Assembly: GCA_030704615.1 (NCBI GenBank)
Contig: CM060733.1
Location: forward strand, 57,970,001-58,034,000
Reading direction: 5' to 3'
DNA from: Takakia lepidozioides
Lineage: Eukaryota; Plantae; Bryophyta
DNA: 64,000 bases
Part shown: piece after piece, positions 9,201 through 49,050 of the stretch
Layout: each line of letters starts with the position of its first letter
Numbering within the stretch: position 1 is the first letter of the stretch
The notes under the pieces: model-generated
The model's input: the letters and a program-made list of their open reading frames with translations, nothing else
Told to the model about the DNA's origin: nothing
Databases searched by the model: none
Position numbers and translations under genes: made by a program

Positions 9201-11070
9201 TTAAGACCGCCATGAGAAAAGACCAATCTACCTTGTCGAAGGCCTTTTCAAAATCCAGGAGCCAGAGGACAAGTGCCTGGCCAGAATTGCTTGCATAGTG
9301 GTTAGCCTCCTGAGCCATGAGGACGTTGTCTAGGATGTATCTTCCTTTCACATAGCCTACCTGACCAGACCTGATCATTGAAGGGAGAAGGGGCTGAATG
9401 CGGAGCGCTAGGGCCTTGGCAATGATCTTGTAGGCGACATTGAGCAAGGTGATGGGCCTGTAGTTGGAAAGGTTAGCTCTGTCACCTTTCTTGAAGAGCA
9501 GAGTTATGACCCCCTGAGTCTTGGAGTCAGGCATAAAGCCTTGGGCCTTAATGGCATTGGCCATTTCGCAGAAGTCCTTGGAGATGGTCGACCAGAGAGA
9601 TTTGAAAAACTCTACTGGCATACCATCGATCCCAGGGGCTTTGTTGTTGTTCAGGGCTTTAAGGGCATCCTCTAATTCTTCAGGGGTAAGACTTGCCTCT
9701 AGAACGATCGCTTCCTCTGCCTTCAGAGTAGTGGGGATGGTTTGAAGGCAAGCAGCAAGCCTGTCTGGGTAGTCATGGTCCTTCAAGTCTGCCTGAAAAC
9801 AGAGAGGAGAAGTGATTGAAAGCAGACGCGCACATTTGCCTGGGGTTGGAAGAAGTGTTACCAGGGAGATCCTACAGAGCTTCACTTTTTGGATGAAGTA
9901 TTTGTTCATTTTTTCACCCTTCGTTGACCAGTTGACCCTTGCCTGCATTTTCATTTTGTTTTCTTGCTCTGTGTGGTAGCAGTCCAGGTTATGTCGGGCT
10001 TCCAAGTATGACTGAAACGTGTGCGCGTCGCAAGATTGAGATTCAATTCTTCTTTGGCAGATACTTAGGCATTTTTGGAGGGCTCGAGCTTTCCTTTTTT
10101 GTGCCTTTGCAATGGCTCGGTTGAGGTCTTGACCGACTTTGCAAGTGGCGGCGAGCTTGGCTTGGAACCTCTGGACTGGGCAAGGGTTGTGGTTTGCAGT
10201 GGAGAGCCAGGCTGACTTAAGGCCATCAATGAAGGAAGAGATTCGAAGGTGGGAGGAGTTGAGCTTGTAGATCCCTCTACCTCTAGGGTGGGAATTGGGT
10301 AGAGTGAGGGATGCAGACACCCGTGCATGATCAAAACCTTGGGGAATAGGATCCTAAGGGCATAATCGGGTAGCATGGGAAAGGGAAATAGAGGAGTAGA
10401 ATCTGTCAAGCCTTGCCATGCAAAGAGCATTAATATCTCTGTTGTTGGTCCAGGTGAAGAAGGGGTTAGCCCCCAACGGGTAGCTGGGGGGTCCTTCCAA
10501 TTCTGCCAAGCTGTGAGACTAGATCAGAGACTGCCAGGAGAGGTCTTCTTCAGGGCTTAGGTGAGTTGCAGTACTCCCCATTCTGTCAGATTCCTTTTCT
10601 GCCATGTTGAAATCACCCGCCACAATCCATCTGCATATGAAACTGTGATACGCCATCTAGAGGTTTATCTTGGCCCAGAGATCCGCTTTGAGAAGAGAAT
10701 CGTTTGGCGCATATATGTTGATAAAACCTGTAGGCTCAATGTCATTAGGGAACCTTAGGGAGCAAAATTGTGCTCTCCCTGGCTCCCAGATCTCGTCTTT
10801 GATGAGAAATTGGTGGATGGAAGGGGACAGAAGAATCGCGGTCCCTCCTCTAGTTCCTTCAATAGAGGGCTTCCAGAGAGGTGAAGCTTTAGGCCAGAGC
10901 TGATTGGTGAGCTTTAGAATTTTCCTGTCACAGAGTTTGTGTTCTTGGAGAAAGACAATAGCCTAAATAGTGATGAGAGGTGCCAGCCAGGCTAAGAGCT
11001 TGACTTTTTTAAGGGCCATCTGGTCAGAACCCAGGCCCCTGATGTTCCAAGAAGACATGCTAACCTGCAT
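6206..11070 (-). pseudogene. LINE A ORF2 (APE endonuclease - reverse transcriptase - zf-RVT), broken by stops, frameshifts and a solo LTR
   Basis: ORF pieces 10963-11274 (SWNIRGLG), 8668-10320 (RT motifs), 8045-8413 (GGLGVLD), 7177-8088 (CHCC..ETLEH..LYC) and 6206-6613 (WNIWKSR). Confidence 0.85.
6640..7237 (+). mobile_element. Solo LTR (598 bp) of the Tcn1-like chromovirus family
   Basis: TGTCACGG...TTAACA termini, 5-bp TSD GTTGG (6635-6639, 7238-7242). Highly similar to the LTR at 33108-33739. Confidence 0.93.
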
Positions 11071-11407
11071 CGCAGGATGGAGACAGCCTGATGGGATGAG
11101 ACTCAATTGATGGCTTGGGTGAAGCGAAGAATCGAAATTTAGTATGTTTGTCTGTGGGCTTTGGGGAGGGACACCAGTGGAGCCCTGGGGGTTCCACACG
11201 GATGGGGTCCTTGAGGTGGACGAATATGACTTGGGTGCTTGGCCGACAGGGTAGAGGGTTGCATGTGTCGTCAAGAAGGATAAATCTGTTGGAATCTTGA
11301 AGGGATGTTTTAATGGATTCTATGGTGGGCTGGGGGTTGGTAGGCAAATTTAGAAGTTTGGAGAGGTGATAAGGAGGCAGTGGGTAAGCGGATGAGGGCA
11401 GCAATTT

Positions 11408-12304
11408 CTACTTGTTGCCTCCAGGGGTAGAGGGGAGTGACTCAGGCGAGAGACATAGGATACTGCATACCTTGTCAGAAAAGAACGAAAAGAAAAGCAG
11501 GGGAATGGATTGAGCGTGGAGTGGGTGACTTACAGGGAAGGATGGAGAAAGGAGCGGAGCCGGTGTCGGGGAAGGCAGCAGAGTTGTGACTGGGTGGAGG
11601 GGCCCGGCGTGTAGTTGAGAGACTTCTGGCGACTGCTGCGTGAAGTATTGCGAGATCTGGAGGTCTGATGAGCTAGAGGTCGACCAAGAGCCCATGGGGA
11701 TGTAGCTGGGGTTGCCATAGTCTTCAATTCTCTTTCGCTCGATTTCCTCATTCTGCGCTTCAATTTCCATGTCCAGATAGGCCTTAAGAACTGTGAAGGC
11801 ATTTTTTAAGGTGTCATTGGACCTGGTTAGGACCTTGCTTGGAGTGTAAGGACCTTCAAAGTGGTCAGCCTCTACCCATACCCCTGGGAGAGTGGTTCCA
11901 GTTTGAAGAAGCTGGTTTTCGTCCACGAGAGCCAAAATATTGGTGTTTGGAGACAGGTCTTGACAAAGCCCAGGGAAGGCCTCAACGTAGGAGCCCCAAG
12001 TGACCAAAGAGTGAGAGAAAAGAGAGTAGAGAGGGAGGTTGGAGTTGAGATAGGCCTGAATCTTGTTGCAGAGGGTCGGGATAGGGGAGCTGTCCATGGG
12101 GCTCTTAGCTATGAATGAGTGGATGTCCTGCACCGAGATCCATATTGAGTCAAAGTGCATATTGTCCCTGGCAGTGACCCTGAAAGCTAGGTTGGGTTTC
12201 CTTCTGAAAATCATCGGGGTAAGACAAGTGGCGACTAGATCTTCCCTGGTGACTAGCTGCGAACAACCTTTGAGAGAGAGCGAAGGAAATGTTCCCAGAG
12301 TGGC
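11408..12304 (-). pseudogene. LINE A ORF1, C-terminal part (downstream of the 12-kb insertion)
   Basis: Removing 12305-24350 plus one TGGC restores the frame ...AHNPTIAKICA/TLGTFPSLSLKGCSQL, homologous to LINE B ASNPVLARICLQLQTFPKLALAGCSKL. Confidence 0.85.
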
Positions 12305-12494
12305 TGTCGTGCGCATACATATCGCTACACAACTACATCGCTGTCCAAAACCACACAACACATGTGCACACCACACACTAGTATACCACTAGTCTACCAC
12401 TAGTCCAGCCACTAGTCCAACCACTAGGCTACAACTAGTCAGTCACTAGGCTGCCACTACGCTGCCCACTATGGCAGTCACTAGTCCACACAAT
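12305..12494 (-). repeat. Split direct repeat B2 (190 bp, 3'-terminal)
   Basis: Identical by eye to 12824-13013; rich in ACTAG motifs. Confidence 0.95.
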
Positions 12495-12495
12495 A

Positions 12496-12821
12496 GATAA
12501 AGAAGAAGAATACAAGCATGAGCTCATGCGAGCTCACAAAGCTGAAGCATAAACTCATGCATATATAACCTCATCACTCAAATACAAGTCAAGCCAAGTG
12601 CACCCCACGCCATGGGGAATCCACACTACGGCGCCATAGCTAGGCGCGGTGAGGCTCATCTCGAGAAAGATGAGCCTCCCGCGCTTGCCGTGAAGATAAC
12701 CACTCCAGGGCCTAAATCTGCCTTGACCCCTGGATTGACACTTGGGCCAATCCCAAATGTCAATATGTAAAAGCTAGCTATTTCCTAGCTAGTTTCACAC
12801 TAGTGGTAAAATAACTTGACA
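12496..12821 (-). repeat. Split direct repeat A2 (326 bp)
   Basis: Matches 24025-24350 with 5 substitutions counted by eye. Confidence 0.95.
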
Positions 12822-12823
12822 GC

Positions 12824-13013
12824 TGTCGTGCGCATACATATCGCTACACAACTACATCGCTGTCCAAAACCACACAACACATGTGCACACCACACACTAG
12901 TATACCACTAGTCTACCACTAGTCCAGCCACTAGTCCAACCACTAGGCTACAACTAGTCAGTCACTAGGCTGCCACTACGCTGCCCACTATGGCAGTCAC
13001 TAGTCCACACAAT
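12824..13013 (-). repeat. Split direct repeat B1 (190 bp)
   Basis: Direct repeat of 12305-12494, separated from A2 by a 2-bp GC spacer inside the palindrome GACAGCTGTC. Confidence 0.95.
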
Positions 13014-13023
13014 CGCCCCCCTA
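13014..13023 (-). promoter_or_regulatory. Polypurine tract-like sequence just upstream of B1
   Basis: Minus strand reads AGGGGGGCG-ATTGTG. Also present in the second copy at ~29365-29374. Confidence 0.6.
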
Positions 13024-13271
13024 GCTGGTGCTTAGGTCCCTCTAAGTCCAGGTAGCCACAAGATGTGATAGTGACCATAGCCTCACTAAGTCCTCCACCA
13101 CTATCCCTACTACACTCAAACTCGATAGATCAAGAGGCCGGGTGCAAGAGTTGCCCCATCGTTAGTCGCCGTCTTGCAACCTGTGAACTTGAGCTTGGGA
13201 TCTCATGTATTGACTCCTATGAGCTTGGCCTCCCATGTCTTGTTAGCTGCCTCCAGTCATGTCCACTGCCA

Positions 13272-16200
13272 CTATCCCAAGCAGTGTGGACACAACCAAT
13301 CTCCGTCAGGAACCTTCTCAAGAGGTGGTGTCAAGCATCCCATATGCCAACCCCTTGAGCACCGATCACACACCAGCATGGTGGCTGCCCCTTTGGCAGA
13401 CCCACAGAGCATGCACCTCAAACCTGCAGGTACCACTGCCAAGTTTGGGTCAACTCTGCCATCGACATTGGGAAGGTGACATGGCGCACAATTACGCACA
13501 TGGTCTTTCCAAGTCATGCCATCCCGACCCTCTAAGATCAGGACCCCTGAGGGCAACACCTCTCGAACCCTCAGAATAACACGCCCTGCAGTAACATCCA
13601 GAGTCGTAGGAGCAGTCTGCTGCAAATAAACATAGTCACCAGGGCTAAACCTCCGAACCCCAGGACGATATCCTCCACCACGTATAGTGGCATACCTCAA
13701 CGTATCACGGTGCTGTGCAATGGCAAGGTTCTCAAAAGCCATGGGCATGACTTTCTTGAACAACTCTGCACGCTGATCACATGCACGTACCCACACGTCC
13801 GGATCGTCAAGGTTAAGGACTTGAGCAGTGTCCCTACGAATGGCTGCAGGCAAATCCGGCTCTCGGCCAAAGAGAAGGAAATATGGTGAGAAGGAGGCAA
13901 GTGATGCTTGTTTGCTGAACCTGTAGCCCATGGCTAACCAAGGAACCTGAAGATCCCAATCTCCTAGGTGTCCCTTCTGCAAGCCATACTTGCGCAAACC
14001 CCTCTTCACCGTCTGAACAACTCTCTCTGCTAAGCCATCGGCCTCAGGATGATCCCGAGAAGTGGTGCGGTGGTCTATCAAGGCTTTATCACACAAAGCC
14101 TGAAACTCCCCCAAGAACTCTCTCCCTTGGTCCGTGAGTACCTCAGCTGGAGCACCAAATCGGCTAAGCACACGATCCAAGAATGCATACGCAGCCCCCT
14201 CACTAGCCTTGTCAGGCAATGGAACCAACTCAATCCACTTGGAGAAGTGCTCCACCATCACCAACACATATCTGTGGTGGCGCATAGTCAGTGGCAACGG
14301 TCCTGCGAAGTCAAGACTCCACCTGTAGCCCAATCCCATGATAGGTAAAGGATGCAACTGTGGTGTAGGGGCGTTGAATGAAGCACGCACCCTGTCACAC
14401 ACCATGCACCTAGCCACAAACTGTTGCACCTCTGTATGCATACCACGCCACCAATACTGCCCCTGCAGTAAACTGTGAGTGCGTCGCACTCCAAAATGCC
14501 CCAACTCCTCATGGGCATGCCGCACTAACCGTGCACGCTGTGTGGGGTGAGGCACAATCCTCACCCGACCATCCTCCCACACTCGAAGTAGGTGTATCCC
14601 CTCCCACTTGAACCTCTTGGCTCGTTGCAGGATCCGATCCCTCTCCCTGGCAGTCACAATGGCTGCCGTGTCTCCCGTGCGGAGGTAGTCCAACACAGCC
14701 GAATCCTCATGTATATCTCTGGCACCACCTAGCTCATCACTAGCCTCAGGGTCCTCAGACACTCCGTCTACAGTCATCCCTGTTGTAGGTCCAATCTGAC
14801 CTCCCGATGCCAAGATACACAAAAATGCAGATGCGTGCCATCCCGACACCATCTCCTCGTCCGTCTCACCATGCCACCGAGCTCCAGTGTCATCCTGCTG
14901 GCTCATGCATGGATTGCGACTCAATCCATCCGCATCCCGATTGACCAAACCCGGTCGATGCACAACCTGAAAGTCATACTCCTGGAGTATAAGTGCCCAC
15001 CGTGCAAGCTTCCCTGTAAGCTTGTCTGACTCCATCAACCACTTGAGTGGCTGGTGATCCGTGACAAGGGTGAAAAGATTGCCGTATAGATAGCACCTGA
15101 AGTGTGCCACGGCCCACACTGCAGCTAAGCACTCTCCCTCATATGAGCTGTACTTAGCCTCTGCAGCGTTGTTCGAGCGGCTAGCGTAAGCCACTACGAA
15201 CTCTCTTCCCTCATCATCCACCTGTGTGAGCACCGCTCCAAGCCCCAGCATGCTCCAATCCGTATGCAGCTGAAAGGGACGCCCCCTGATAGGTCGTCTC
15301 AAGATAGGCGCCGAGGTCAACCTCGCCTTGAGCTCTTGAAAAGCTCGTTCCTGCTCATCTTCCCACTGCCACTCCTGGTCCACCTTGGTCAGCTTGGTTA
15401 GAGCCTTTGCAATGGTACTAAATCCCTTGACAAACCGTCTATAATAGTTTGCCAACCCCATGAAAGCTCGAACTCGGCTCACATCCGTGGGGCGTGGAAT
15501 TTGTGCAATGGCCTCTACCTTAGTCTGCTGTACCCCCAATCCTCCAGGATATATCATGTGACCCAGATACTCAATCTGGTTGTGGAAAAACTTGCACTTC
15601 CCCGGATGCAACTTCAATCCGTGCGCTCTCAAGCGCTCCAATACCACCTGAAGGTGTCTCTCATGCTCCTCCATCGTAACACTAAAGATGATGATGTCAT
15701 CTATGTAGCACCGAGCAAAGTCCACCCCTGCTAGAATCCTATCCATGACTCTCTGAAACTCTGCAGGAGCATTCTTAAGCCCAAATGGTAAGAACCGCCA
15801 CTGATATAGGCAATCCTTGCCGTGCTCATTGATCCCCCAGAATGTCGTCTTCTGCTTGTCCGCCTCCTTGATTGGCAACTGGTGATATCCGGATCGTAAA
15901 TCCAAAGTGCTAAAGGCCTTAGCATGCCCGATGGCATCAAAGATCTCCTCTGGTGTTGGCATGGCATACTTATCGGACTTGGTCTGACGATTTACAGGCC
16001 GGTAATCACCGCACATACGTCTCTCCGTCCAATTGCCATAGACATCCTTCTTGGCTGGCATCACTGTGGCTGAAGCATACTCTCCACCAGAGAGCTCCAC
16101 CAAACCTGCCTCCCAGAGATCTTGAGTCCTCATCTGAATCAAAGACCTCTCCATGTCACTGTATCTATAGGGTCTCCGAAAGATTGGCGTGTCAGTGGCC

Positions 16201-16406
16201 AACTCAATACGGATCTCTTGACCCTTCAGTGCTCCCAAGTCCTTCAAACTGAAGGCAAAGCAATTCCTGTAAGCCCTCAGGAACCGCCGTATACGTCGTC
16301 TCTCTCCTCCGGTGACAATGGGTCCAATGTCAGGCTCCCAATTGTCCTCCGTAACTACAACCTTAAGTCCAGTGGGCTTAGAGGTAGAGGACGCGTCCCG
16401 TGGTTG
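13272..16406 (-). CDS. pol: Pol: reverse transcriptase, RNase H, DDE integrase and C-terminal PHD finger
   Basis: LDLRSGYHQ, LPFGLKNAP, YIDD; TDWS..GAVL, TDHQPL, DADGLSR; H..H..CMVC, WSLDFAG, LTDQGREF, GLAER; PHD C4HC3. The frame is open back to the TAG at 16407-16409 and in frame with the upstream ORF. Confidence 0.95.
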   Translation of the reverse strand, partial: QPRDASSTSKPTGLKVVVTEDNWEPDIGPIVTGGERRRIRRFLRAYRNCFAFSLKDLGALKGQEIRIELATDTPIFRRPYRYSDMERSLIQMRTQDLWEAGLVELSGGEYASATVMPAKKDVYGNWTERRMCGDYRPVNRQTKSDKYAMPTPEEIFDAIGHAKAFSTLDLRSGYHQLPIKEADKQKTTFWGINEHGKDCLYQWRFLPFGLKNAPAEFQRVMDRILAGVDFARCYIDDIIIFSVTMEEHERHLQVVLERLRAHGLKLHPGKCKFFHNQIEYLGHMIYPGGLGVQQTKVEAIAQIPRPTDVSRVRAFMGLANYYRRFVKGFSTIAKALTKLTKVDQEWQWEDEQERAFQELKARLTSAPILRRPIRGRPFQLHTDWSMLGLGAVLTQVDDEGREFVVAYASRSNNAAEAKYSSYEGECLAAVWAVAHFRCYLYGNLFTLVTDHQPLKWLMESDKLTGKLARWALILQEYDFQVVHRPGLVNRDADGLSRNPCMSQQDDTGARWHGETDEEMVSGWHASAFLCILASGGQIGPTTGMTVDGVSEDPEASDELGGARDIHEDSAVLDYLRTGDTAAIVTARERDRILQRAKRFKWEGIHLLRVWEDGRVRIVPHPTQRARLVRHAHEELGHFGVRRTHSLLQGQYWWRGMHTEVQQFVARCMVCDRVRASFNAPTPQLHPLPIMGLGYRWSLDFAGPLPLTMRHHRYVLVMVEHFSKWIELVPLPDKASEGAAYAFLDRVLSRFGAPAEVLTDQGREFLGEFQALCDKALIDHRTTSRDHPEADGLAERVVQTVKRGLRKYGLQKGHLGDWDLQVPWLAMGYRFSKQASLASFSPYFLLFGREPDLPAAIRRDTAQVLNLDDPDVWVRACDQRAELFKKVMPMAFENLAIAQHRDTLRYATIRGGGYRPGVRRFSPGDYVYLQQTAPTTLDVTAGRVILRVREVLPSGVLILEGRDGMTWKDHVRNCAPCHLPNVDGRVDPNLAVVPAGLRCMLCGSAKGAATMLVCDRCSRGWHMGCLTPPLEKVPDGDWLCPHCLG

Positions 16407-19400
16407 CTATGCTGCAACCTCTTGAGCAGTACTCCCTGCCTGCTCAGTCAATGACAAGGCCTCATCCTGCCCCATCATCTCATCCTTGAGGACCTCCTCA
16501 ACCCGAGAAGAATCCCCAACCTCATCTATCACAGCCGCCTTGGCTGCCAACTCCCTCTGAACCTCGAGCACCTCCCACGTGTGCCATGGATGCATGCACC
16601 CCGTGGTCCTCACATGCTCGCCCCCACTCACTGCCTGTACCGTCTCGGTAGGCAGAGAGACCATTGAGGGAAGTGTATTCCGCACTCTGCGTTGCTCAGC
16701 CAGAGCCAAGCTGATAATCCAGGTCAAGCAATTGAGATCCATTGCTTGCCCCAACACTTGACGACGTGATGCCTCAGAAAGAGACGACACCGCCGTGGTA
16801 CCAGTGGTAAAACCCATTGCCCGCTCACGCTCGTCAGCATTAGGCTCCACTAACTGCTGCAACTGAGCATCCCACAGGAGGCCAGGTCCACTATCCCGGA
16901 AAGCATGCGATCCTGGGAAGCTGAGCAGTGTAGGTAATGCTGCTCGTGGTTGACCCACCTTGTTGACCACTGCCAAAGGCGAACGGTCATCGTGTCTCAC
17001 ACGTTGAGACTGCCTCCCTGTGTCCAGAATGTTATCCACTGTGAGATGTGCTGGCCGCTGCACCCCATCAAATGCACGCTTGAGCAGTGCGGGTGGCATC
17101 ATGTTAGTCCACCATAGCCGTGGACGATGAGCCCGTGACCCCACTGTAGCTGCATCTAGCAACACTGCTGACCCAAGCCACGACCGGACTTGATGCACAC
17201 TGGCCATCACCCTGGCCCGAGAATCGCCCATCAGTGGCACATTCTCCAAGATGTATGCTGGAGATACAGCTTGATGAAGCTGCAAGTGGCGCAAAACCCG
17301 CACCATCTCCCAAAACAGACCCGACCTCGAGTCTCGCAATCCATTGCCATGCCCGGCTGATGAATGCCCTTGGCAGGGCCAACCTGCCACTACCAGATCA
17401 ATGGAGCCAACCCGCTCCAAATCCTGCGCCCCCAGCAACGAAATGTCTGCTGGCAAGGCCTGCTGATATCCACGAATTGCAGACACCGACAACAACTCAG
17501 GGTACCGCTGCACCAACTGAGCAACATGGCGAAGTGAAACGCGTCGTGCAGTCTCATCCCTCTCCACATACAGGTAACGCCGAACTCGTACACCTGCCTG
17601 TAACACAGCAGCCAATCCGGTGCTGATCCCGCCAAACAAGTCCAGAAGACAAATGCCTTCATCCGGAGACTGCCACACAATAGGTGTGGTGTCCAATGGA
17701 GACAATTGAGGTGGTCCTGGTGCAATCCCCACACTCTCCTCCTCTCCTGACGGTACAAAAGCCTCCACCCAGGCTTGTTGCACCCGTCGATCAGCATCCC
17801 GCTGCAAATCCTTGCTCGTGCCCCACAATGGAGTCTGAGCAACCATGGTAGGCAACTCCGCCATACCATACATGTCATCCTGCTCTCCCGGAGGTGGTAC
17901 ATCCTCTGAATGAGCATTGCCCTCAAGCAACTCTCTAGGCCAACTCACTGCCGCTGTGAATGCTGCTAGTGTCGGCATCTTGCCTCGCTGGGCAACCGCA
18001 ACTCCTCCTATGAACGTCACAGGGAGCTGCACACGCCGGCCCTCCCCTGACTGCCATGCAGGCCTATAGGAAGCTGACTCCTCCCAAAAATCCAGGGTGA
18101 AGCCCATGGGGTACAACACTGCCCCACCAACCAGGACATCGTATGAGACTGCGTCTGTCACAATGGCCTTGGCTCGCATCACTGAGCCATCTGTAGGGTG
18201 ATCCGGCCGTAGTCTGATAGCCAACTCATGCCGTGTCATGCCCCGAGCCTGCTCCGATCCTCCCAGAGACGTCTGTATCTGGAAAGGACAAGGCTCCATA
18301 TCCGCCTCCGTGAGGCCCAAGCCTGCAATAGCAGCTCTGCCCAGCATCAGTGGCTGAGCTCCCGAGTCCAACAAGACTCGCAGTGGCCGGTACCTCTTGC
18401 CTGCCGGTCCACTCAAACAGAAAATGCCATCCTGGTTGTCTAACATGACAACTCCAGGTGTCACCATGGCGCGCTCAATGGCTGGCCTAGCTGGCAGCTC
18501 CATCAACCTGGCAGCTGCAGCTTGCCATGGCGCCGCCGTGGCAGTCTTGACCCTCAAATCCGAGGATCCCTCCGGCACTACACCTCCCACTATCTCCGCA
18601 GAAGATGAAGTAACCTCCCCACTCTCACAGAGTGTAGCTGCCAGCCTGAACACCTCAGCTGGTCTTATCCCCGGCGTCGCAATCATGGTAGCCGAGAACA
18701 ATGGAGCCTGGCACACAGATGTGGCCGCTCCTAGCAGCACACTAGCTGCCGTAGCCTTGGCAACACTAGGTAGTGGTGCTACCCGTGTAGCTCTCCCCAA
18801 TGGCATAGTAACCTCCGCCTCGGTAACAGTCGGGCGAGAACTAGGTGCCATGGATGGCGTCGACACTGTCTCCGCCAATGTGAATGACTGAGGAAGCCTA
18901 GCCTGACGGCTTGCCTCCCCACGCTGTGGATCCAACTCCACCTCTGCACCTCGTGGCTCAGGAACTCGTGCTGCTCCTCGAGTCACGGCTGCAGCAGACT
19001 CCACCTGCACTAGTGGTAGTGCTGCTCCACACATGAATCCCATGCCTCCCATATCTCCTCCCTCAGGAGCAGGAGGTGGACCATCCGGCCTTAGAGCCGG
19101 TACCACCTGAGCTGTAGCCATGGCAGCGAGCCTCTGCTCTAGCTGCTGAAGCCGGTTGGCCATGCCTTGGTCAACACCCTGACCTCCGCGTCCTTGGCCA
19201 CGTTGAGCTTGCCCTTGGCCTCGTGGCTGGCCACCTCGTCCCCTCTGGGCTGCTCCACCTCGCCCCCGGCCACCATTGTTCCCTTGGAACTGGCCTGGGC
19301 GCAACTCAGGATGCAAACCATAACACTGAGCCTCTCCATGCCCGTGTTTGCCACAATGCCCACACTGTAACTGTGCAGGCTGTGCATGTGCCGCCCTTTG

Positions 19401-19478
19401 CCTCCTCTGGACAATCCTTCTTGACATGGGGTCCTCCACATGTCCAGCACACCACATCCGCCCGTTGTTGGCCAGCAA
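16407..19478 (-). CDS. Second zinc knuckle, aspartic protease and DNMT3-like C5 cytosine methyltransferase
   Basis: CGHCGKHGHGEAQC; LLDSGAQ protease; MTase motifs LDLFGGI (I), GWPCQG (IV), ENV (VI), RPRLWW (VIII), ERERAMGF (IX), RRQVLGQAM (X). MTase domain ~16712-17654. Confidence 0.92.
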   Translation of the reverse strand: MLANNGRMWCAGHVEDPMSRRIVQRRQRAAHAQPAQLQCGHCGKHGHGEAQCYGLHPELRPGQFQGNNGGRGRGGAAQRGRGGQPRGQGQAQRGQGRGGQGVDQGMANRLQQLEQRLAAMATAQVVPALRPDGPPPAPEGGDMGGMGFMCGAALPLVQVESAAAVTRGAARVPEPRGAEVELDPQRGEASRQARLPQSFTLAETVSTPSMAPSSRPTVTEAEVTMPLGRATRVAPLPSVAKATAASVLLGAATSVCQAPLFSATMIATPGIRPAEVFRLAATLCESGEVTSSSAEIVGGVVPEGSSDLRVKTATAAPWQAAAARLMELPARPAIERAMVTPGVVMLDNQDGIFCLSGPAGKRYRPLRVLLDSGAQPLMLGRAAIAGLGLTEADMEPCPFQIQTSLGGSEQARGMTRHELAIRLRPDHPTDGSVMRAKAIVTDAVSYDVLVGGAVLYPMGFTLDFWEESASYRPAWQSGEGRRVQLPVTFIGGVAVAQRGKMPTLAAFTAAVSWPRELLEGNAHSEDVPPPGEQDDMYGMAELPTMVAQTPLWGTSKDLQRDADRRVQQAWVEAFVPSGEEESVGIAPGPPQLSPLDTTPIVWQSPDEGICLLDLFGGISTGLAAVLQAGVRVRRYLYVERDETARRVSLRHVAQLVQRYPELLSVSAIRGYQQALPADISLLGAQDLERVGSIDLVVAGWPCQGHSSAGHGNGLRDSRSGLFWEMVRVLRHLQLHQAVSPAYILENVPLMGDSRARVMASVHQVRSWLGSAVLLDAATVGSRAHRPRLWWTNMMPPALLKRAFDGVQRPAHLTVDNILDTGRQSQRVRHDDRSPLAVVNKVGQPRAALPTLLSFPGSHAFRDSGPGLLWDAQLQQLVEPNADERERAMGFTTGTTAVSSLSEASRRQVLGQAMDLNCLTWIISLALAEQRRVRNTLPSMVSLPTETVQAVSGGEHVRTTGCMHPWHTWEVLEVQRELAAKAAVIDEVGDSSRVEEVLKDEMMGQDEALSLTEQAGSTAQEVAA

Positions 19479-20571
19479 ATGAAGGGAGAGACCCCTGCAT
19501 CTGAGGTCCTCTCTGCCCTTCCCTGAGCTTCACCTGAGCCCCCTTGTTGCCTTGAGCACGTTGAGGTAGTGGTTGGCTAGGAGCACCACTACCCCGTGGT
19601 GTCTCCTTAGCAAATCCCACCATGACCACTCGTTCCTCCACCATGTTGAGCTCTATCCGCTCTGCCAGCAAAAACACATTTGCTAAGGTGGGTTGGGCCG
19701 CTTGTAGGAGAGTTGCATCCCGCACCCTTCTCCTCAGCTCCTTGTCCAATATCCCATACCAGAATTGGACTGCCTGAGCTTCCGTAACCCCTTGGGTTAC
19801 ATTTATCAAGCGCCTCATGCGAGTGAAAGCCTCCCTCAAGCTCTCGGTCGGCTTCCGTTGGAACTCTTGCAAGCTCCGCAACTTCTCTGTCCTCACCCCT
19901 TGGTAGTTCCCTCTCAACTCTTCGAAGAACTCCACAACAGGGTTGAAGGCAGGCACGGGTGCTAGTGCTGGTGCGGTAGTGGCTTGGGTGGACGTCGTAG
20001 CTACTGTACCACCAGTCCCACTGCTGCTTGCTGAAGCTGCCGGTGCAGCGGCAGGTGTAGCCACTGCCCTCGTGGCTCTAGTGCCCCTAGTGATGGAGAC
20101 ATAGTCGGGTGACCAGTACATCCTCCACTCCTCGATCTCAACCTCATGCCCCCGCCTGAACTCATGGTAATCATCCATAGGCGGCCCCTCAAGGTGCTGA
20201 AACAGCCCCTTCCATGCCATGAAAGGCGTAAATAGTTGTGGATTGCGCATTTGCTGCAAATCACACCAACTATCAAACTCTTGGATAAAATCATCCAACT
20301 CGATGGTGCCCACCGCCCCAGAGTATCTTCGTGGCCCCTTGGTAGCTCCATACATCTCCTCCATTGTGTCCCACAACAATGGCAAAGAAACAACTTGCAC
20401 CGCCGGTATGAGTCCTCCTGATTCACAATCCGAATCAGAACCTTCCGTAGAAGACACAGGAGGTGAAGGTGGCCTAAACCGCACACCTCGTCTCGTGTAC
20501 CCACTAGTATCGCTAGTGCTCGAACCGGCACTGTCCCCAGCAACTAGTGGCACCTCCGTGTTGACACTCAA
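19306..20571 (-). CDS. gag: Gag (capsid-like region and CCHC zinc knuckle); first ATG at 20364
   Basis: PRRYSG..ELDDFIQEF, FQRKPTESLREAFTRM, QFWYGIL..ELRRRV, CWTCGGPHVKKDC. Overlaps the next ORF, which is in the +1 frame. Confidence 0.85.
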   Translation of the reverse strand: MSVNTEVPLVAGDSAGSSTSDTSGYTRRGVRFRPPSPPVSSTEGSDSDCESGGLIPAVQVVSLPLLWDTMEEMYGATKGPRRYSGAVGTIELDDFIQEFDSWCDLQQMRNPQLFTPFMAWKGLFQHLEGPPMDDYHEFRRGHEVEIEEWRMYWSPDYVSITRGTRATRAVATPAAAPAASASSSGTGGTVATTSTQATTAPALAPVPAFNPVVEFFEELRGNYQGVRTEKLRSLQEFQRKPTESLREAFTRMRRLINVTQGVTEAQAVQFWYGILDKELRRRVRDATLLQAAQPTLANVFLLAERIELNMVEERVVMVGFAKETPRGSGAPSQPLPQRAQGNKGAQVKLREGQRGPQMQGSLPSFAGQQRADVVCWTCGGPHVKKDCPEEAKGGTCTACTVTVWALWQTRAWRGSVLWFAS

Positions 20572-21289
20572 CCGGTCATGAACATGTCCATAACCCCCTC
20601 TTCACAAGGTAACCGGGTAGAGAACCTGTTGCGGCTTATGGTTTGGAATACTAAGTTCCTAACATAGCCTACACCTGTACCTGCATCCACCGCAAGCACT
20701 CCTATGGTTGGCTGGTCATCACCTCCAACCTCACCACAGGAGAAACAATGATGGTCTGGCTGGTCATCACCCCAGCCTCACCATCGACAGCATGCTCTAG
20801 GACTGGCCGGTGATCAAATCCGGACCAATCACCTATAAAAACAAGCGCCCACACAAAACTAGCATGGCGCACAGTCAAGCATGCAGGTATGGAGGGGATC
20901 CAAACACAAGAAATCAGATCACAACTCCCCCACACCAAAAACAACTCCACGGTGTTGCTCCTGCAAGGACACCCCAGCCCAAACCCGGACTGACTCTTGC
21001 CTCCACCTACGGAAAGGTCTTGGCCTAATGAGAGGGTGGAAACTACGAGGAAGAGAAGCTAAAGCAATGCCTAATCCCAGCATGCCTCTCATCCCAACAC
21101 TCTGCCTCTCCTCTCTACCCTCACTTGCATGACCATGGGAATATCATGAAGATACTCCTCAAACCGCCCTCCACGAGCTTCAAAATTCGGCCTTCCAGAC
21201 CACATGCCAGTCCTTAGGCAGTCCACCAGTGCCTCCACGAGTCAGCACAGGCCGTCCACAGGTCAACACGGGCCACCACAGACCAGCAC

Positions 21290-22490
21290 AGGCCCCCACA
21301 GCTCACTGGTCACAGCCGTCACAGTCCCACAGGCCACTGGGCACAGCCTGTCGCAGCCCCTCACAGCTCACTGGTCACAGCCGTCACAGTCCCACAGGCC
21401 ACTGGGCACAGCCTGTCACAGCCCCTCACAGCCTGTCACAGCCTCAAAGGCCTCAGGCACGGCCTGTCACAGCCCCTCACAGCCCCAAAGGCCATGGGCA
21501 CGGCCTGTCACAGCCCCTCACAGCCCGTCACAGCCCCAAAGGCCTCAGGCACGGCCTGTCACAGCCCCTCACAGCCCGTCACAGCCCCAAAGGCCTCAGG
21601 CACGGCCTGTCACAGCCCCTCACAGCCCGTCACAGCCTCAAAGGCCTCAGGCACGGCCTGTCACAGCCCCTCACAGCCCCTCACAGCCTCAAAGGCCTCA
21701 GGCATGGCCTGTCACAGCCCTCATAGCCCGTCACAGCCCGTCACAGCCCATCACAGCCCCAAGGCCATGGGCACGGTCTGTCACAGCCCCTCACAGCCCC
21801 ACAGTCACAGCCACAGCCTCACAGGGCACAGGGCACAGCCTGTCACAGCCCATCACAGCCCATCACAGCTTGCCACACAGCCCGTCACAGCCTCACAGCC
21901 TCAAAGGCCTCAGGCACAGGCCTGTCACAGCCCTCACAGCCTCAAAGGCCTCAGGCACGGCCTGTCACAGCCCCTCACAGCCCGTCACAGCCCCAAAGGC
22001 CATGGGCACGGCCTGTCACAGCCCCTCACAGCCCGTCACAGCCCCAAGGCCATGGCACAGCCTGTCACAGCTCGCCACAGCCCGTCACAGCCCCACAGGC
22101 CTCAGGCACAGCCTGTCACAGCCCCGCACAACCCGTCACAGCCCCAAAGGCCACTGGGCACAGCCTGTCACAGCCTGACACAGCCCGTCACAGCCCCACA
22201 GGGCACAAGGCACAGCCTGTCACAGCCCATCACAGCCCATCACAGCCTGTCACAGCTTGCCACAGCCTGTCCCAGCCCGTCACAGCCCGTCACAGCTCCA
22301 CAGGCACAGGGCACAGCCTGTCACAGCTTGCACAGCCCATCACAGCCCGTCACAGCCCGTCACAGCTCGCCACAGCCTGACACAGCCCATCACAGCCCCA
22401 CAGGCACAGGCACAGCTTGTCACAGCCCCTCACAGCTCGCCACAGCCTGACACAGCCCGTCACAGCTTGCACAGCCTGTCACAGCCCCAC
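21290..22490. repeat. ~1.2-kb tandem array of ~10-bp (G/C)TCACAGCCC monomers with a 51-bp higher-order unit, in the element leader
   Basis: Visible directly. The plus-strand ORF repeats a 17-aa unit (RPVTAPHSPSQPQRPQA), equal to 51 bp. Confidence 0.95.
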
Positions 22491-24024
22491 ACATGGCCGC
22501 TCTGGCAGTTTAGCCATTTCTCCAAGGGGTTTAGCCACGCCAAGCTAGGGTTTGTGTCTCTTGGACTCTAGGCTTCTTTCCACCAAGCTATGGTGGCTGT
22601 GAGAAAATCAGCAAGGTATCCTTGCTCTTTCGGCTCCCACACACCACCATAGTAGCCCTAAGTCATGAGGTGGTTGCCACAAACCAAGCCTTCTTTCTCA
22701 CTTAGCCTCCCCAAACACGCCACTAAAATCAATGGCAAACAACCAAGCCCTGCTGGTTCCCAGCCCTTGTGAGCACTCATTCAAGCACTCTCATTGGCCA
22801 TAGCATCTGTCTTAGAGCCTATTCCAGCCCTCTACACCTGTTGCTTCAAGAGTTGCGCTCCCTTCAAGCTTGAAGTTGAAACCCCAACTCACATAGGCCC
22901 TACAAGTGCTTTTCTTTCACTCCAAGTGGAAACCAGCCCTAGACCTTCCGTTCTAGCTCTCTAAGGCTTGAAAACAAGAGCCTCAATGGGCTGAAGGCAT
23001 GCTCCACACATGCCCCACTCTCACCATAAGAGAATCAGCTCCTTTGCTTCATTTCTTGCACCCACAAACCTGAAAATACAAGCTTCAGCAGGCTGAAAGC
23101 ATGCTCTACATGCCCTACAGGGAAACCAGCCCCTTCCTTCCTTCCTTGCACTCCCACACCTAAAAGTGCAAGCCTTCACCAGGCTGATAGCATGCTCCAC
23201 ACATACATTGCCCTCACATAAGGGAAGTCAGCCCTTCCCTCTTCCTTGCTTGCCCTCCAAGCTTGAAGATGGAAGCTTCAATGAGCTGAATACATGCTCC
23301 ACACATGCAACCTCTTCACACAAGAGATATCAGCCCCCTATCTTGGCTCCTTGGCTCCTTGATGCTCTCTAAGACAAGACTAAGTACTCCACAGCCTTTG
23401 CCAAGCTCCTGAAACCCTAAGGCTTACATTTCCAGCCACAAGACACTTCTCTTGTGGTGCAAGAGCTCTTCTTCCAAGCTCTGAAACCCCAGGTGCACAT
23501 TCCATGGCCTTGCCGCACCTCTTAGCTCCTGTTCCAGCCCTGCTCTTGCCATGACAAGAGCCCTCTCAATGCTGAAGCTCGAGATTGAAACCCAATCTCA
23601 CCATACTCCACAAAGTGCATTGATTTGCCCCAAGCCAAATCAGCCCTTTCGCTTGGTCTTGCAATCCTTCACACAATGAAAGCTCGCATTCCCAGGTCCA
23701 GTTCTCAGCTTTGCCACCAAAGCCACTATAACCTGCTCTTGACTGGTCCTCTTCCCAATCGTGCTTGCTCATGCATGTACACAATCTGAAACCATCAAGG
23801 TGCTCTGGAATTACCTGCAGCATGGTGCTTTCATCTCTGAAGCTGAAGATCGAATGCCAAGGTCTACCACCTCGTAACCCACATCACCTCCGCTTCTAAC
23901 AACCAAGAGCTCCATGTTGCTCCTTGCATAACAACTTGGTTTCTCTCAATCTCAAGCAAAAACCACAAGTGCTACAACTAACTCGTATCTAGCACTCATA
24001 GATACGAGCTGATCTTTCTCGAGT

Positions 24025-24350
24025 GATAAAGAAGAAGAATACAAGCACGAGCTCATTCGAGCTCACAAAGCTGAAGCATAAACTCATGCATATATAACCT
24101 CATCACTCAAATACAAGTCAAGCCAAGTGCACCCCACGCCATGGGGAATCCACACTACGGCGCCATAGCTAGGTGCGGTGAGGCTCAACTCGAGAAAGAT
24201 GAGCCTCCCGCGCTTGCCGTGAAGATAACCACTCCAGGGCCTAAATCTGCCTTGACCCCTGGATTGACACTTGGGCCAATCCCAAATGTCAATATGTAAA
24301 AGATAGCTATTTCCTAGCTAGTTTCACACTAGTGGTAAAATAACTTGACA
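24025..24350 (-). repeat. Split direct repeat A1 (326 bp, 5'-terminal)
   Basis: Begins TGTCAAG on the minus strand. Contains several hairpins and TTATATAT. Repeated at 12496-12821. Confidence 0.95.
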
Positions 24351-26253
24351 TGGCGCAGATTTTGGCAATTGTAGGGTTATGTGCCAGTGGTGAGGGGCAA
24401 CGAAGTGGTGTATGTGCTTGCTCCACTGGGTGCCTGGTGATGATGTTGGGGCATGCTTTCCATTTGTTCTTGGCCTGTTCCATCTCCCAACTGATAATCC
24501 CTGGAATTGGAATGGGGGTGGGCATTGAAGGAAGTGTTGTTGGAAGGTGGGCTTTGAGGATATCTGAAGAAGAGGAGCCTTGGATGCTTGCAGCTTGGAG
24601 CTCAGAGATGATGGGGCCCTTGCCTCTGTGGGATTTGGAAGCTAGTGCAGAGGAGGCCTCAATGACCATAGGGTCCTCAATTAGCCTTCTTTTCCTTGTT
24701 GGCGGGGAGGTAGAGATTTGATTGACTGCACTATCCCAGGCATGGTTGCACCGATCATGGGCAGGCCTCTGGTCAACTTTCTCTAGCGAGAGTGGGTGAC
24801 ATAGGGAGGAGTCCTTGTGATTGATTGGAATTCTTGGGTGGGGATCTGTGGTAGGAGCTGAATTTTGAATAATTTCGGTGCTTCCGTGCCCAGCCTGTGG
24901 GTTGTTCATTCTCCTCCTTTTCAGCTTGGGGCACCCTGCCTTGAGGTGCCCAGATTTTCCACAGTAATAACATGCTGAAGCTGCCGTGTCCTCAGACACT
25001 TTCACAGAGAAATAATTGCCTTGATTGTCAATTGGTAGCCTGATGAATTCTGGATGCTGAGTAAGCACTCCAGCTCTCGCTTGAACTCTTTCTAGTAACA
25101 CCTTGATGGTCACTAGTGTACAGTTTTGAATTGTCCAAGTTATAATGATTACTTTTCATTCTGCTGTAACCTTTCTCTAATTGACTCTCTGAGTGGAGGC
25201 ATCATTCTTTCTGGTTTCTTTCCTGTTTTTCTTCTTTCCTTTGAGGTTTTGTCCTGGTGCCTTTGTAAGTTCCTGATCGTTGGGCATTAGCACCACAATC
25301 TTAGGGAATCCGTTTTCATTCGCCTTTGATGAAATGGTTGCCCCTCTCCATGATGGGTGCTGTCGCAGTGAGGCAGTGTATGTATCATTGTCAAAGACCG
25401 CCAGACATCCCAGAAAAGCACCAAAATAATTACCTATAGCTGGTAGGCTCAAGAGGTATTGGTCAGGAATGTAAGGCAACGATATGATCCTTGGGCTCCA
25501 AATCTTGCCATTCCTGTTTCTCATGCATCTAGACCATGGGAAAATATTGACGTTAAGCCCATGCAGATGAGGATTGAATGCTCGGGCTTTGTCCGCTGCC
25601 TCTCGCGCTTGATTTCTAGTCACCTTTTTGCCTGGGAAATGAAGGAGGATACCGTTGTTCTCATACTGAGCTGCATCTGAGTCAATCTGGTCGAGCTCCA
25701 CTGGGACGAGTGGGTGGTCTCTGGCGATTGCGGACTGCAGGGTAGTAGAGTCTGAAGGGGAATCTTCCGAGAGATCCGTGGGCGGGCTGCCTGGAATGGG
25801 CGGGCTCGGGGAATTTGAGTGGGGCCCGGAAGAGATCCCTGCAGCACCATTGTGAATGGGGGGCCCCAAGGGAGGGCCTGGAGCGAAGTGAGGTGGGGGA
25901 TGGTTTGCCTGAGACGAACTATGCGCAATGAGGCCCATGGAATGGGTTTGATGCGCAATGAAGAAGCCTGTCCCCGTTGACGGATGGAGTCTGCGAGGAT
26001 CCGGAAATCTGGGGCCTTGGCCTGGTCGATGGGTTGCCAGATTGAAGGCCTTGTGAGGGAAGGGCGCCATGGAGAGGAAGCGAGCTGAAGCAACAGGAGA
26101 GGGAGCTGGAGGAGAAGGAGGGGAGGGGCAATTGAGAGGATAACAAGAATCAACTAGCCAAATGCGTGCAAAAGGGTCCCATGCGAACTTGCAGGCACCT
26201 GAGGCTGGCCAAGCGAGGAAAGGCGAGAAGAAGGACTGGAGGAAAGGGCGCAA
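24351..26253 (-). pseudogene. LINE A ORF1, N-terminal part, with a ~213-bp insertion (25054-25266) and an internal deletion
   Basis: GILLHFPGK, FNPHLHGLNVNIFPW, GFPKIVVLMPN/PEFIRLPIDNQGNYF and the CCHC knuckle align with LINE B ORF1. Confidence 0.8.
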
Positions 26254-28079
26254 GCTGAAAAACGGGCCCGAGCTGATTAGCTGCTACAGCGAAGCGCGGG
26301 TAGGGGCTTAGGGGTGAGTTAGTGAAGGCGGCTCCTAGGAAACTGAAACGATCATTTCCATGATGAAAAAGGTAGGGATCGGATTGGCCAGGATGATATG
26401 GCAGGGGATCAGGGGGGGGGGACTTATGTACTTGGTGGCTGCGCTTTAGGGAGAATTAATAGAGGTGAGTTGAGAAGCATATGGCTAAGCATGCGACTCT
26501 GATGAAGATAGACAGGCTCGTCATGACAGCCGCTTAGATCCGGTGATTGGGATGGGGCCTGTCGATGGCACCAAGTATTATGTTTGGGATGAATCGTGAG
26601 GTACAACATTAGCTTGTTTGGGACTTAGAGCCGATAGTGGGGAGGAAGGGGAGTCCGAGTGCTAGGGTTGAAGAGGTGTAGAGGCTGTCGGCGAAGCTTG
26701 CACACACCGCGCATTGCGGAGCTCTTCTTCTTCCTCCATCACCTCCATTGAATTGTCCAATATTTTCATTGTCCAGTTTTACAGTTTTATAAATTTACAG
26801 TTTTATAGTTTTATGGATCTTTATTATATATCTTTTTAAACATATAAAGACATCTAGATAAGTTTTTCAGTGAGTATTTCAGTATTACAGTTTTACAAAT
26901 GTACAGTTTTATAGTTTTATGGATCTTTAGTATATATCTTTTTAAGCATATAAAGACATCTAGATAAGTTTCTCAGTGAATATTTCAGTATTATATCAGT
27001 ATTTCACTTAAAAATAAATTTTCAGCTCATTATAAACTTCATTTTTCAATTGTAATATTGTAAATTTATTTGCTTTCCATTTCAAATTACTTCTTTGTAT
27101 TTATAGTATCTCAATTACAGACTTAAAATTTTATTTCATATTCACATTTATTTTATATCATTCTGCTTTGGATGCCCAATCCATATATCTAATGTTCTCA
27201 CTTTTACCACGATTTTAATTTCATAGTTTTAAAATTTTAAAATCTAACAATTGAATAAGACCAATATATTAGCTTGAAGTTCAATTTTTCACTTCATATC
27301 ATATGATTTATTTCCAGGAAATAATTATATTCTAAATTCTCGAATCTAACAGTTTTTCATTAATCTAATTAAGAAAATTTGTTGTTACTAAACCACAACA
27401 ATAATCGTAAACAAAAAAGTATAATATTACATTCTCTTCTTTACGTAAATCCAGTATTTCTCATTTATTAATGTTTACATACTTAACTACAACATAGTAA
27501 ATTACATCCAAAAAAAATATCTCAGTATTTTAGTAATTCAGTAAATTGAACAATCGGTTAATAGTATCATACATTATACTTAATTTTGTTCATTTAGGTC
27601 ATTGTTCTATTTTGAAAAAGATCAAATATAAAATTTTATGAGAGGATTTGTTGATTATTATATTTTCAATTGCCAAAGTTGTCAATAAAAATAATACAAT
27701 AAGCTGATTGATATCATATATTTTCACATAACAGATATTCTAATCTGAAGATTGAATGATGCTTAGGTTTTTTCGATTTAAGTCTATTCTCTATTACAGG
27801 GAATTTATTTTGTAATTTGTTTTTTTATCTACAAATAAAATAAAGTTTTTCCAGGGTCTCTGGTCTCTGCCCTTGTTATACATATATATTTAGTTTCAAT
27901 ATAAAATTTTAAATAAATATTCTACTTTCAGGGTGGAGCCATTACGCGACTAGCCGCTTGTTATAATTAAAACAAAACTTTATTTTGGATAACGTTCATC
28001 CATCCATTTGTAATGCACCGACATCCTTTTTGAAATAAACCTTTACGTGTTAGTACCTATGTTAAAAATAGAAAAATAG

Positions 28080-29174
28080 TAAGATATGTATTATTATTTA
28101 TAACTGCCCTAAGGAGCCCTAAGATGGGGAAAATAGAAATATATAAATTATTATTTATAATTACCTTCAAGACACCTAAGAGGGGAAAAAATGCCAATAT
28201 ATATATGATTATTTATAACTACCCTTGGGATTTCTTAGGACAGTCTTAAGGAGTCCTAAGAAGAAAAGAATGGAAAGACAAAAATATTTGCTCTTAAGAC
28301 CCGTTTAGGCAGCCTAGGGGGTTATAAGAAGGGGAGAATGAAAACATATAAATTATTATCTATAATTACCCTTAGTAAAAAGAGAAAAAAATGAAAGATA
28401 TAAATTATTATTTATAATTGCCCTTAGGACTCCTTACGGCGGCCCTAAGGAGTCCTAAGAGGGAAAAATAGAAATATATAAATTATAAGAAAATCAAAAT
28501 ATATACATTATTATTTATAATTACCCTTAGGACTATCTAAGAAGAGAAAAATGGAAAGACATAAATAATTTCCCTTAAGACCCATTTAGGCAACCTAAGG
28601 AGTTATAAAAGGGGGAAAATGGAAACATATAATTATTATCTATAATTGCCCTTTGCACTCCTTAGGACTGCCCTAAGGAGTCATAATAGGGGAAAACGGA
28701 AATATATAAACTATTATTTATAATTACCCTTGGGACTCCTTAGGACTGCCCTAAGGAGTCCTAAGAGAGGGGAAAATAAAAACGTATAAATTAATAATTA
28801 CCCTTAGGGCTTCATAGGACAGTCCTAAGATGAGAAAAATGGAAACACATAAATAATTGTCTTTAAGACCCGTTTAGGTAACCTAAAGGGTTATAAGAGG
28901 AGGAAAATAGAAAAATATAAATTATTATCTATAATTGCCCTTATGACTCCTTAGGGCAGCCCTAAGAAGAACTAAGAAGGGGACAGTTGAAAGATGCAAA
29001 TTATTATCTATAATTGTCCTTAGGACTCCTAATGGCTCTAAGAGGAGGAAAATAAAAATATATAAATTATTATTTATAATTGCCCTTAGGACTACTTTAG
29101 GCCGCCCCAAGTAGTCCTAAGAAGGGGGGAAAATAAAAACATATAAGTTATTATTTATAATTACCATTAGGACT
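28080..29174. repeat. AT-rich degenerate tandem repeat
   Basis: Recurrent AAATTATTAT(T/C)TATAATT(A/G)CCCTTAGGAC...CCTAAGA-purine tract units of roughly 60-80 bp. Confidence 0.85.
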
Positions 29175-48730: not shown

Positions 48731-48930
48731 AACTTATAGATGCTAATAACTTAAACAAGCTTGCATCACAAGCCTGTTCCTCTACTTCAGCTTGCGGCCG
48801 TTTTGCTTCTTCGCCCACTTTATTGCAAAACAAACCCAACTGCAAAGTCTTTTGTGTGATCACTATCTACAACCAAGTAGTAGCAAAAAAAAAACAAGAA
48901 GGAAAAAAAAAGAAAAAAAAAGAAGGTAAG

Positions 48931-49050
48931 TAGTAGCCCAGTGGTGATGGGCACATACCACCTTGGAAGTGGTTGTGGGTTCAATCCATGTTGGTGTTGC
49001 AGAGGTGTCCACCTTGAGGCCGGAGAACCCTTCCTTTGGGGTGAAGAAAC
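48931..49050 (+). mobile_element. tRNA-derived SINE-like repeat
   Basis: A box TAGCCCAGTGG and B box GGGTTCAATCC. Second copy inverted at ~54548-54668. Confidence 0.65.

Follow-up and report, generated by a model that had tools for sequence, protein, structure and literature searches.

A DNMT3-like methyltransferase in a split-repeat Ty3/Gypsy retrotransposon of Takakia lepidozioides, with a predicted readthrough stop codon before reverse transcriptase

The window analyzed here, the whole stretch of 64,000 nucleotides from Takakia lepidozioides (GenBank assembly GCA_030704615.1, contig CM060733.1, positions 57,970,001 to 58,034,000 of the forward strand), contains a 12-kb Ty3/Gypsy element on the minus strand (12305-24350), which lies between two identical 4-bp duplications and has apparently inserted into a LINE-like element. 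Along its coding strand, the element begins with a repeat (A), followed by a predicted self-priming site, a long leader with a tandem array, gag, a protease, and a DNA methyltransferase (DNMT) domain. A TAG codon separates these from reverse transcriptase (RT), RNase H, integrase, and a PHD finger, after which come a polypurine tract (PPT) and the repeats B-A-B. The target-site duplication, the TG...CA ends, the primer site (predicted to be self-primed), and the PPT are all features of Ty3/Gypsy elements. The window also contains a PPR-E-DYW gene, which marks the host as a land plant; a DYW tree places it beside paralogues from Sphagnum, Calypogeia, and Diphasiastrum with an SH-aLRT of only 92, tentatively suggesting a seed-free lineage. 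The features of the element, in window coordinates, are as follows.

12301-12304, no strand: left copy of the 4-bp target-site duplication, with the same letters as the right copy
12305-12492, minus strand: terminal repeat B2, the 3' end of the element
12496-12821, minus strand: repeat A2, with B1 and B2 on either side, 98.5% identical to A1
12817-12828, no strand: palindromic B1/A2 junction, the predicted integrase cut site (a role inferred from its halves, which match the two ends of the element)
12824-13011, minus strand: repeat B1, immediately downstream of the PPT
13014-13022, minus strand: PPT, recognized by its sequence and lying at the same position in related loci
13272-16406, minus strand: ORF2, 1044 stop-free codons, the first Met being codon 85
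13275-13436, minus strand: PHD finger at the C-terminus of the integrase (PF00628, E = 2e-10)
13827-14606, minus strand: H2C2 and DDE-type integrase (rve) in ORF2
14967-15371, minus strand: RNase H in ORF2
15537-16226, minus strand: RT in ORF2, with YIDD at 15696-15707
16401-16409, minus strand: in-frame TAG and the two codons after it, CAA CCA, which give it a type I (TMV-like) readthrough context
16407-19529, minus strand: protease-DNMT ORF, 1040 aa
16713-17657, minus strand: DNMT3-like C5 cytosine methyltransferase domain
18030-18449, minus strand: aspartic protease domain, with LLDSGA (DSG motif) at 18357-18374; its Pfam matches are weak and below the cut-off
19306-20601, minus strand: gag, split from the protease-DNMT frame in the window copy by a frameshift near 19400
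21245-22493, no strand: array of degenerate tandem repeats within the long 5' leader
24008-24024, minus strand: non-tRNA primer-binding site, predicted to be self-priming, 16 of 17 positions being complementary to 24188-24204 within A1
24024-24350, minus strand: terminal repeat A1, the 5' end of the element; contig cover drops steeply beyond ~24370
24351-24354, no strand: right copy of the target-site duplication
29175-30031, minus strand: second copy, truncated (integrase end, PHD, and repeat B only) and 96% identical

The window copy is a recent, nearly intact member of an abundant family. Its insertion is considered recent because an alignment of A1 with A2 shows 5 differences in 323 columns and one of B1 with B2 none in 184. 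The sole visible lesion is the gag frameshift, which falls between two Cys/His knuckle-like motifs and leaves this copy unable to make the full Gag-fused protein. Contigs from other copies vary in length at the same site, and in Marchantia and other relatives Gag, protease, and DNMT form a single continuous protein. The abundance of the family is evident from the best sequencing run, in which 98,550 of 2,790,647 contigs match 8.7 kb of the element, a count of contigs and not of genomic copies, from a run that may itself be the source of the window.

The methyltransferase domain matches PF00145 above the Pfam cut-off (E = 3e-13). The first-pass annotation had described it as a complete DNMT3-like enzyme, with canonical motif order and intact PC, ENV, and RxR residues, in frame with the protease, and this description holds: the C5-methyltransferase motifs could all be located, unpermuted and in the frame of the protease; they are numbered here within the series I-X.

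17628-17639, minus strand: motif I
17370-17384, minus strand: motif IV (PC)
17238-17249, minus strand: motif VI (ENV)
17103-17129, minus strand: motif VIII (RxR)
16809-16832, minus strand: motif IX
16737-16754, minus strand: motif X

In a comparison of 216 homologous domains, all 210 with a residue at the catalytic position retain the Cys, all 216 retain the motif-VI Glu, and the two members of the motif-VIII Arg pair are retained in 211 of 214 and 209 of 212, respectively. An AlphaFold model of the window domain has a pLDDT of 97, and Foldseek returns DNMT3A as its best match (E = 2e-19; TM 0.73/0.86), the top matches all being DNMT3. In a profile search of the PDB, DNMT3A (5e-26) is followed by DRM-type enzymes (4e-15 to 2e-11), HhaI (1e-8), and DNMT2 (2e-4 or worse), and single sequence, profile, and predicted fold all rank DNMT3A/B/C above DRM2, HhaI, and DNMT2 as the nearest solved proteins. 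Judged by these rankings, which are not a tree, the domain is a complete DNMT3-like C5 methyltransferase. Identity as a plant DRM enzyme was rejected because the motifs are in canonical order instead of being circularly permuted and because DRM2 aligns only to query residues 11-136.

A search with the domain recovered 81 long proteins, the best of which share 70-76% identity and include sequences from Marchantia and Calypogeia, with further matches in Sphagnum, metagenome proteins, Chromochloris, and Closterium; 266 clusters (50% identity) match it at E 1e-30 or better. A search with RT added Klebsormidium KFL_009030040 and one Coleochaete transcript, and a scan of viral contigs returned distant phage methyltransferases only (30 of 53 stretches, with 29-50% identity over part of the domain). 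Quick trees were built after identity filtering, which retained 95 of 227 DNMT rows and 91 of 158 RT rows; the DNMT tree comprises retroelement and phage domains only, and 11 phage methyltransferases served as outgroup. The window DNMT groups with elements from liverworts and Sphagnum (SH-aLRT 99), and the DNMT-bearing elements, Klebsormidium included, form a single RT clade of 75 rows (SH-aLRT 99) with respect to an imperfect outgroup. The two trees concur on the nearest groups of the window element. In a large nested clade the domain sits between RNase H and integrase, and in the biggest sister clade it is the neighbor of integrase.

Selection on the DNMT domain was estimated by the pairwise Nei-Gojobori method in 13 chosen pairs among 15 loci. 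Four of the seven unsaturated pairs have dN/dS values of 0.09-0.12, and the other three, all pairs of decayed copies, have values closer to neutrality (0.29, 0.50, and 0.83). In six more pairs synonymous sites are saturated and dN ranges from 0.19 to 0.49 (0.19-0.43 in comparisons with the window copy). By these pairwise estimates, the domain is under purifying selection. The first-pass annotation had named absence from other copies and neutral evolution as outcomes that would count against its reading; the domain is instead present in relatives of many lineages, and its evolution is not neutral.

The same annotation had placed the methyltransferase between protease and RT. The position is correct, but the domain does not share one open frame with RT, from which it is separated by the in-frame TAG at 16407-16409. 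Together with the six nucleotides that follow it, this codon (TAG-CAA-CCA, 16409-16401) fits the type I readthrough consensus UAG CAR YYA, for which passages of PMC2754532 and PMC11166343 give a readthrough level of ~10% in vivo in TMV, and it is the only one of the 219 stop triplets on the coding strand of the element to lie in a type I context. A survey of stop contexts drew on 80 loci; the site is covered by 59 of these and by the window. Of the 31 loci whose DNMT is at least 50% identical, 28 have a stop codon and then CAR-YY at the corresponding position, in frame with RT, although these 28 include many copies of one family and represent about three independent lineages; the motif occurs in none of the 29 loci of a distant subfamily. 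The full CAR-YYA hexamer is found in five loci (the window, L017, L019, L029, and L061). The other 23 deviate from CAR-YYA at the sixth base and often have an ATG after it, so that reinitiation is possible there; in the window copy, simple reinitiation is disfavored because ORF2 has no Met before codon 85. Taken as a whole, the sequence context makes it likely that RT-integrase is produced by stop-codon readthrough, and since the conserved stop separates DNMT from RT, the enzyme is assigned to the Gag-protease frame. High enzyme dosage is not required lineage-wide, because the distant subfamily lacks the stop motif and the large nested clade has its DNMT between RNase H and integrase.

Decay as the origin of the TAG was ruled out by the occurrence of the same stop context in lineages that are only ~50% identical. 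This sharing also argues against a broader reading, in which the domain, a fragment recently captured from a host gene, is carried along neutrally as a passenger and the TAG arose as a disabling mutation. The frameshift in the window copy and the decay of many relatives would agree with such a history, which nevertheless appears very improbable in view of the purifying selection on DNMT and of the range of the domain, from Klebsormidium and Closterium to liverworts and Sphagnum. The excess of enzyme that a stop after the DNMT would give is compatible with yet another role, in which the Gag-protease-DNMT product would work in trans in the nucleus to silence sibling elements or rival transposons or to hold down the element's own copy number, self-limitation having been raised in passages of PMC5890265. 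Against this, Pfam detects no targeting domain on the DNMT frame and the family is very abundant by the contig count given above, and action in trans is regarded as distinctly unlikely.

The ends of the element are unusual for an LTR retrotransposon in that repeat A stands at the 5' end and B-A-B at the 3' end, instead of one complete LTR at both. The 5' repeat A has no B ahead of it in 25 of 25 loci, and B-A-B closes 10 loci at the 3' end; an exact 4-bp duplication is kept in six of the ten two-ended copies, the ends having been judged by eye where B finishes in a short repeat. Two nested elements or a one-off rearrangement were rejected as explanations because the same end layout occurs in two distant subfamilies. 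The sequences at the two ends of the element are the halves of the palindromic B1/A2 junction, and the A2/B2 junction joins the primer-side end (before the primer site) exactly to the PPT-side end (after the PPT). Contigs of a single run differ by a few letters at the A2/B2 junction, a variation that fits a circle junction formed anew. Among the loci, no A-B-A...B form was observed, nor any use of the downstream palindrome. Circular cDNA is usually regarded as a dead end for LTR elements. In this family, the arrangement of the repeats makes it likely that insertion proceeds from circular DNA, which would be opened by the DDE integrase at the upstream palindrome; alternatively, a DIRS-like route with inherited junctions may be involved. 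PAT/Ngaro-type DIRS elements, which have split direct repeats, resemble the window element in their A1-internal-B1-A2-B2 organization and in the likely use of a circular intermediate. Unlike them, the window element has a DDE (rve) integrase, a protease, a PPT, and 4-bp target duplications. Its identity as a DIRS element was rejected because a scan of its three coding ORFs detected rve and H2C2 and no tyrosine recombinase.

The closest solved relatives of the PHD finger are those of CHD4, PHF12, KDM5B/KDM5A, ATXR5, and PHF21A. The fingers of CHD4, PHF12, KDM5, and PHF21A read unmodified H3 tails (H3K4me0), like the ADD domain of DNMT3. By similarity to this class, the PHD finger likely steers insertion away from H3K4-methylated promoters. 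Assignment to the chromoviruses was rejected, as the C-terminus of the integrase bears the PHD finger and no chromodomain. The resemblance of the integrase-fused finger to these readers, together with the location of the DNMT next to integrase in the biggest sister clade, speaks for a role at the insertion site, where the methyltransferase would ride with the integrase-PHD complex and methylate flanking chromatin, as DNMT3 does via its ADD reader. In the subclade of the window element, however, the conserved stop uncouples the amount of DNMT from that of integrase, a situation that is easier to reconcile with a bulk substrate in the particle than with a single target site, and methylation of the insertion site is considered unlikely.

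The preferred reading, to which a probability of slightly less than 0.6 is assigned, is that a particle-borne DNMT, whose activity is predicted, methylates the newly made cDNA of the element itself. In such a scheme, most ribosomes would halt at the UAG and a minority would read on into RT-RNase H-integrase-PHD; enzyme and capsid subunits would be present in particles at a ratio of about one to one, and the protease would free the methyltransferase inside the particle. Self-primed reverse transcription would then yield a B-A-internal-B-A cDNA, the ends of which would join into a circle, and integrase would open the upstream B/A palindrome to give A-internal-B-A-B with a 4-bp duplication. The cDNA would arrive methylated, most likely at CG, and would resemble host DNA or be protected while extrachromosomal. 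Methylation of cDNA has already been proposed for algal elements, and the retrotransposon DNMT3 of Symbiodinium (SymbioDIRS-Dnmt3) methylates CG de novo in yeast, according to passages of PMC5890265.

Base composition counts against methylation of the cDNA: dinucleotide composition gives no sign of self-methylation, the CpG observed/expected ratio of the element being 0.51, and there is no extra CpG loss relative to its neighbors (0.32-0.42 in LINE-like DNA and 0.40 in the PPR gene). Between the two copies in the window, transitions affect 8 of 44 CG sites, 8 of 73 CHG sites, and 13 of 335 remaining C/G (CHH) sites, a pattern that fits ordinary host methylation after insertion. The lack of extra CpG loss would also suit a domain that is retained for some function besides C5 methylation of DNA, for instance methylating RNA or binding DNA while the circle forms or integration takes place, as would the result for KnitGypsy-Dnmt3 of Klebsormidium, which produced no methylation in yeast, an outcome that its authors call inconclusive (PMC5890265, in the passages available). 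The near-invariance of the catalytic Cys, Glu, and Arg residues and a match to DNMT3 that is far better than that to DNMT2 in the PDB profile search weigh against such a function, and little credence is given to it.

The nearest described system is KnitGypsy-Dnmt3 of Klebsormidium nitens, which shares the DIRS-like split repeats, for which passages of PMC5890265 give no mechanism. The K. nitens protein KFL_009030040 has the same PR-DNMT-RT-RH-IN order and 45% DNMT identity, and it shares an RT clade with the window element. The host of KnitGypsy-Dnmt3 is an alga, whereas that of the window element is a land plant and its nearest relatives are in liverworts and Sphagnum. In KnitGypsy-Dnmt3, the DNMT lies in the ORF of RT according to its authors, and the term PHD is absent from the main text of PMC5890265; the window element has a conserved type I stop between DNMT and RT and carries a PHD finger. 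It is classed as a land-plant variant of the KnitGypsy-Dnmt3 kind, and not as KnitGypsy-Dnmt3 itself, because in its subclade the stop separates the DNMT from the RT frame. DNA methyltransferases are also carried by SymbioDIRS-Dnmt3 (PMC5890265) and by DAM-LTR and EpiLTR (bioRxiv 10.64898/2026.05.21.726589), which belong to other retroelement classes or carry other methyltransferase families and represent independent captures according to passages of those papers.

Individual features have further parallels. The self-primed Ty3 elements Tf1/Sushi and Tcn1 likewise have a non-tRNA primer site complementary to the 5' repeat (passages of PMC6317226, the main text of which does not contain the term PHD), and the window element differs from them in its PHD finger, present in place of a chromodomain, its split repeats, and its methyltransferase. 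Readthrough of the TMV type, as described in parts of PMC2754532 and PMC11166343, uses the same UAG CAR YYA but in a viral replicase, and here the signal follows Gag-protease-DNMT. Chlamydomonas Gypsy-7a_cRei (PMC9940879) and REM1, cited there, are Gypsy elements with a PHD finger that has been proposed to limit harmful insertions; compared by description only, the section on Gypsy-7a_cRei describes no methyltransferase or split repeats. The view of the first-pass annotation that a DNMT is not a recognized feature of land-plant LTR clades agrees with the literature searched and with passages of the REXdb paper. Passages of PMC12344493 and bioRxiv 10.64898/2026.05.21.726589 cite KnitGypsy-Dnmt3 as "streptophyte" and name no land plants, and their supplementary trees could include land-plant copies; passages of PMC6317226, PMC12885004, PMC9033089, and PMC9985172 mention no such element. 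In the literature searched, outside which most subscription journals lie, no land-plant members, readthrough, or integration route were described. The features not found in print are the Gag-linked dosage of the enzyme via a likely leaky stop and the likely integration from a circle.

A more far-reaching proposal is that these elements make up a green-plant-wide Ty3 clade, Marchantia included, with a replication mode of its own, comprising a DNMT3 dosed with Gag by readthrough, a two-LTR circle, and cutting of an internal, CG-flanked palindrome, in which methylation of the element's own cDNA would be a working step of transposition that possibly chooses the palindrome to be cut. This proposal is tentative and more likely to fail than to hold.

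LTR finders that rely on a matching pair of ends would overlook the family or misplace its boundaries, and this may explain why it has no name. Why retrotransposons carry the silencing enzyme of their hosts has been a question since the report on algal elements, the hosts of which are hard to work with, and the existence of close relatives in Marchantia, Calypogeia, and Sphagnum brings it within reach of experiments in a model plant. From the conserved stop, both the amount and the place of the enzyme can be predicted, namely with Gag in the particle, which separates methylation of the cDNA from methylation of the target site. In addition, the combination of split ends with target duplications suggests that the DDE integrase of these elements uses circular cDNA.

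In a large clade of the element's own lineage (P0045, P0055, P0061 and relatives, recovered in the homology searches), the DNMT3-like methyltransferase (DNMT) domain is located between RNase H and integrase. This clade, which includes a Chromochloris protein, forms a single group in both the DNMT and the RT trees (DNMT tree: 53 rows, SH-aLRT 98) and is nested among elements with the order protease-DNMT-RT, a pattern suggesting that the domain likely relocated within the element only once. One further protein with the order RT-RH-DNMT-IN-PHD, P0075, is labeled in the database as derived from a bacterial metagenome-assembled genome, and its source is likely algal DNA within a bacterial bin.

Relatives also differ in subfamily and end form. 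A second subfamily (loci L041-L080), with DNMT identities of 36-43%, shares the split repeats and self-primer of the main element; the readthrough stop motif was found in none of its 29 copies scored (0/29). Some copies, namely L020, L027, and the truncated second copy in the window (29175-30031), have a single B repeat at the 3' end. L020 retains an exact 4-bp target duplication, while that of L027 matches at three of four bases. Such single-B ends are as expected for a one-LTR circle or for recombination between B1 and B2.

Within the window, a LINE-like element (7177-12388 and 24307-26283) is apparently split by the main element, which has the same orientation; a zinc knuckle lies on one side of the insertion and RT plus zf-RVT on the other. 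The truncated second copy adjoins a decayed plus-strand fragment of an unrelated Ty3 element (30035-32600), whose CpG O/E of 0.97 indicates no CpG depletion, in contrast to its neighbors. Other features are as follows:

28051-29180, AT-rich degenerate tandem array, units of about 57-80 nt, adjoining the end of the second copy
44601-47852, minus strand, PPR-E-E+-DYW gene, single ORF
48928-54671, 50410-51244, and 53939-54333, three inverted-repeat pairs

The PPR gene contains seven repeat units of 303 nt with about 80% identity, and its product is likely an organellar RNA-editing factor; the inverted-repeat pairs are possibly ends of DNA transposons or MITEs.

Outside the DNMT clade, two Ty3-type RT proteins (P0312 and P0333) carry a precomputed PF05869 domain, a Dam-type adenine methyltransferase. 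Both resemble the DAM-LTR elements (bioRxiv 10.64898/2026.05.21.726589). Finally, P0230, an RT-RH-IN-PHD protein from the Coleochaete scutata transcriptome with 74% identity over RT-RH, was placed inside the main element's RT subclade, hinting that a charophyte relative of this element is transcribed.
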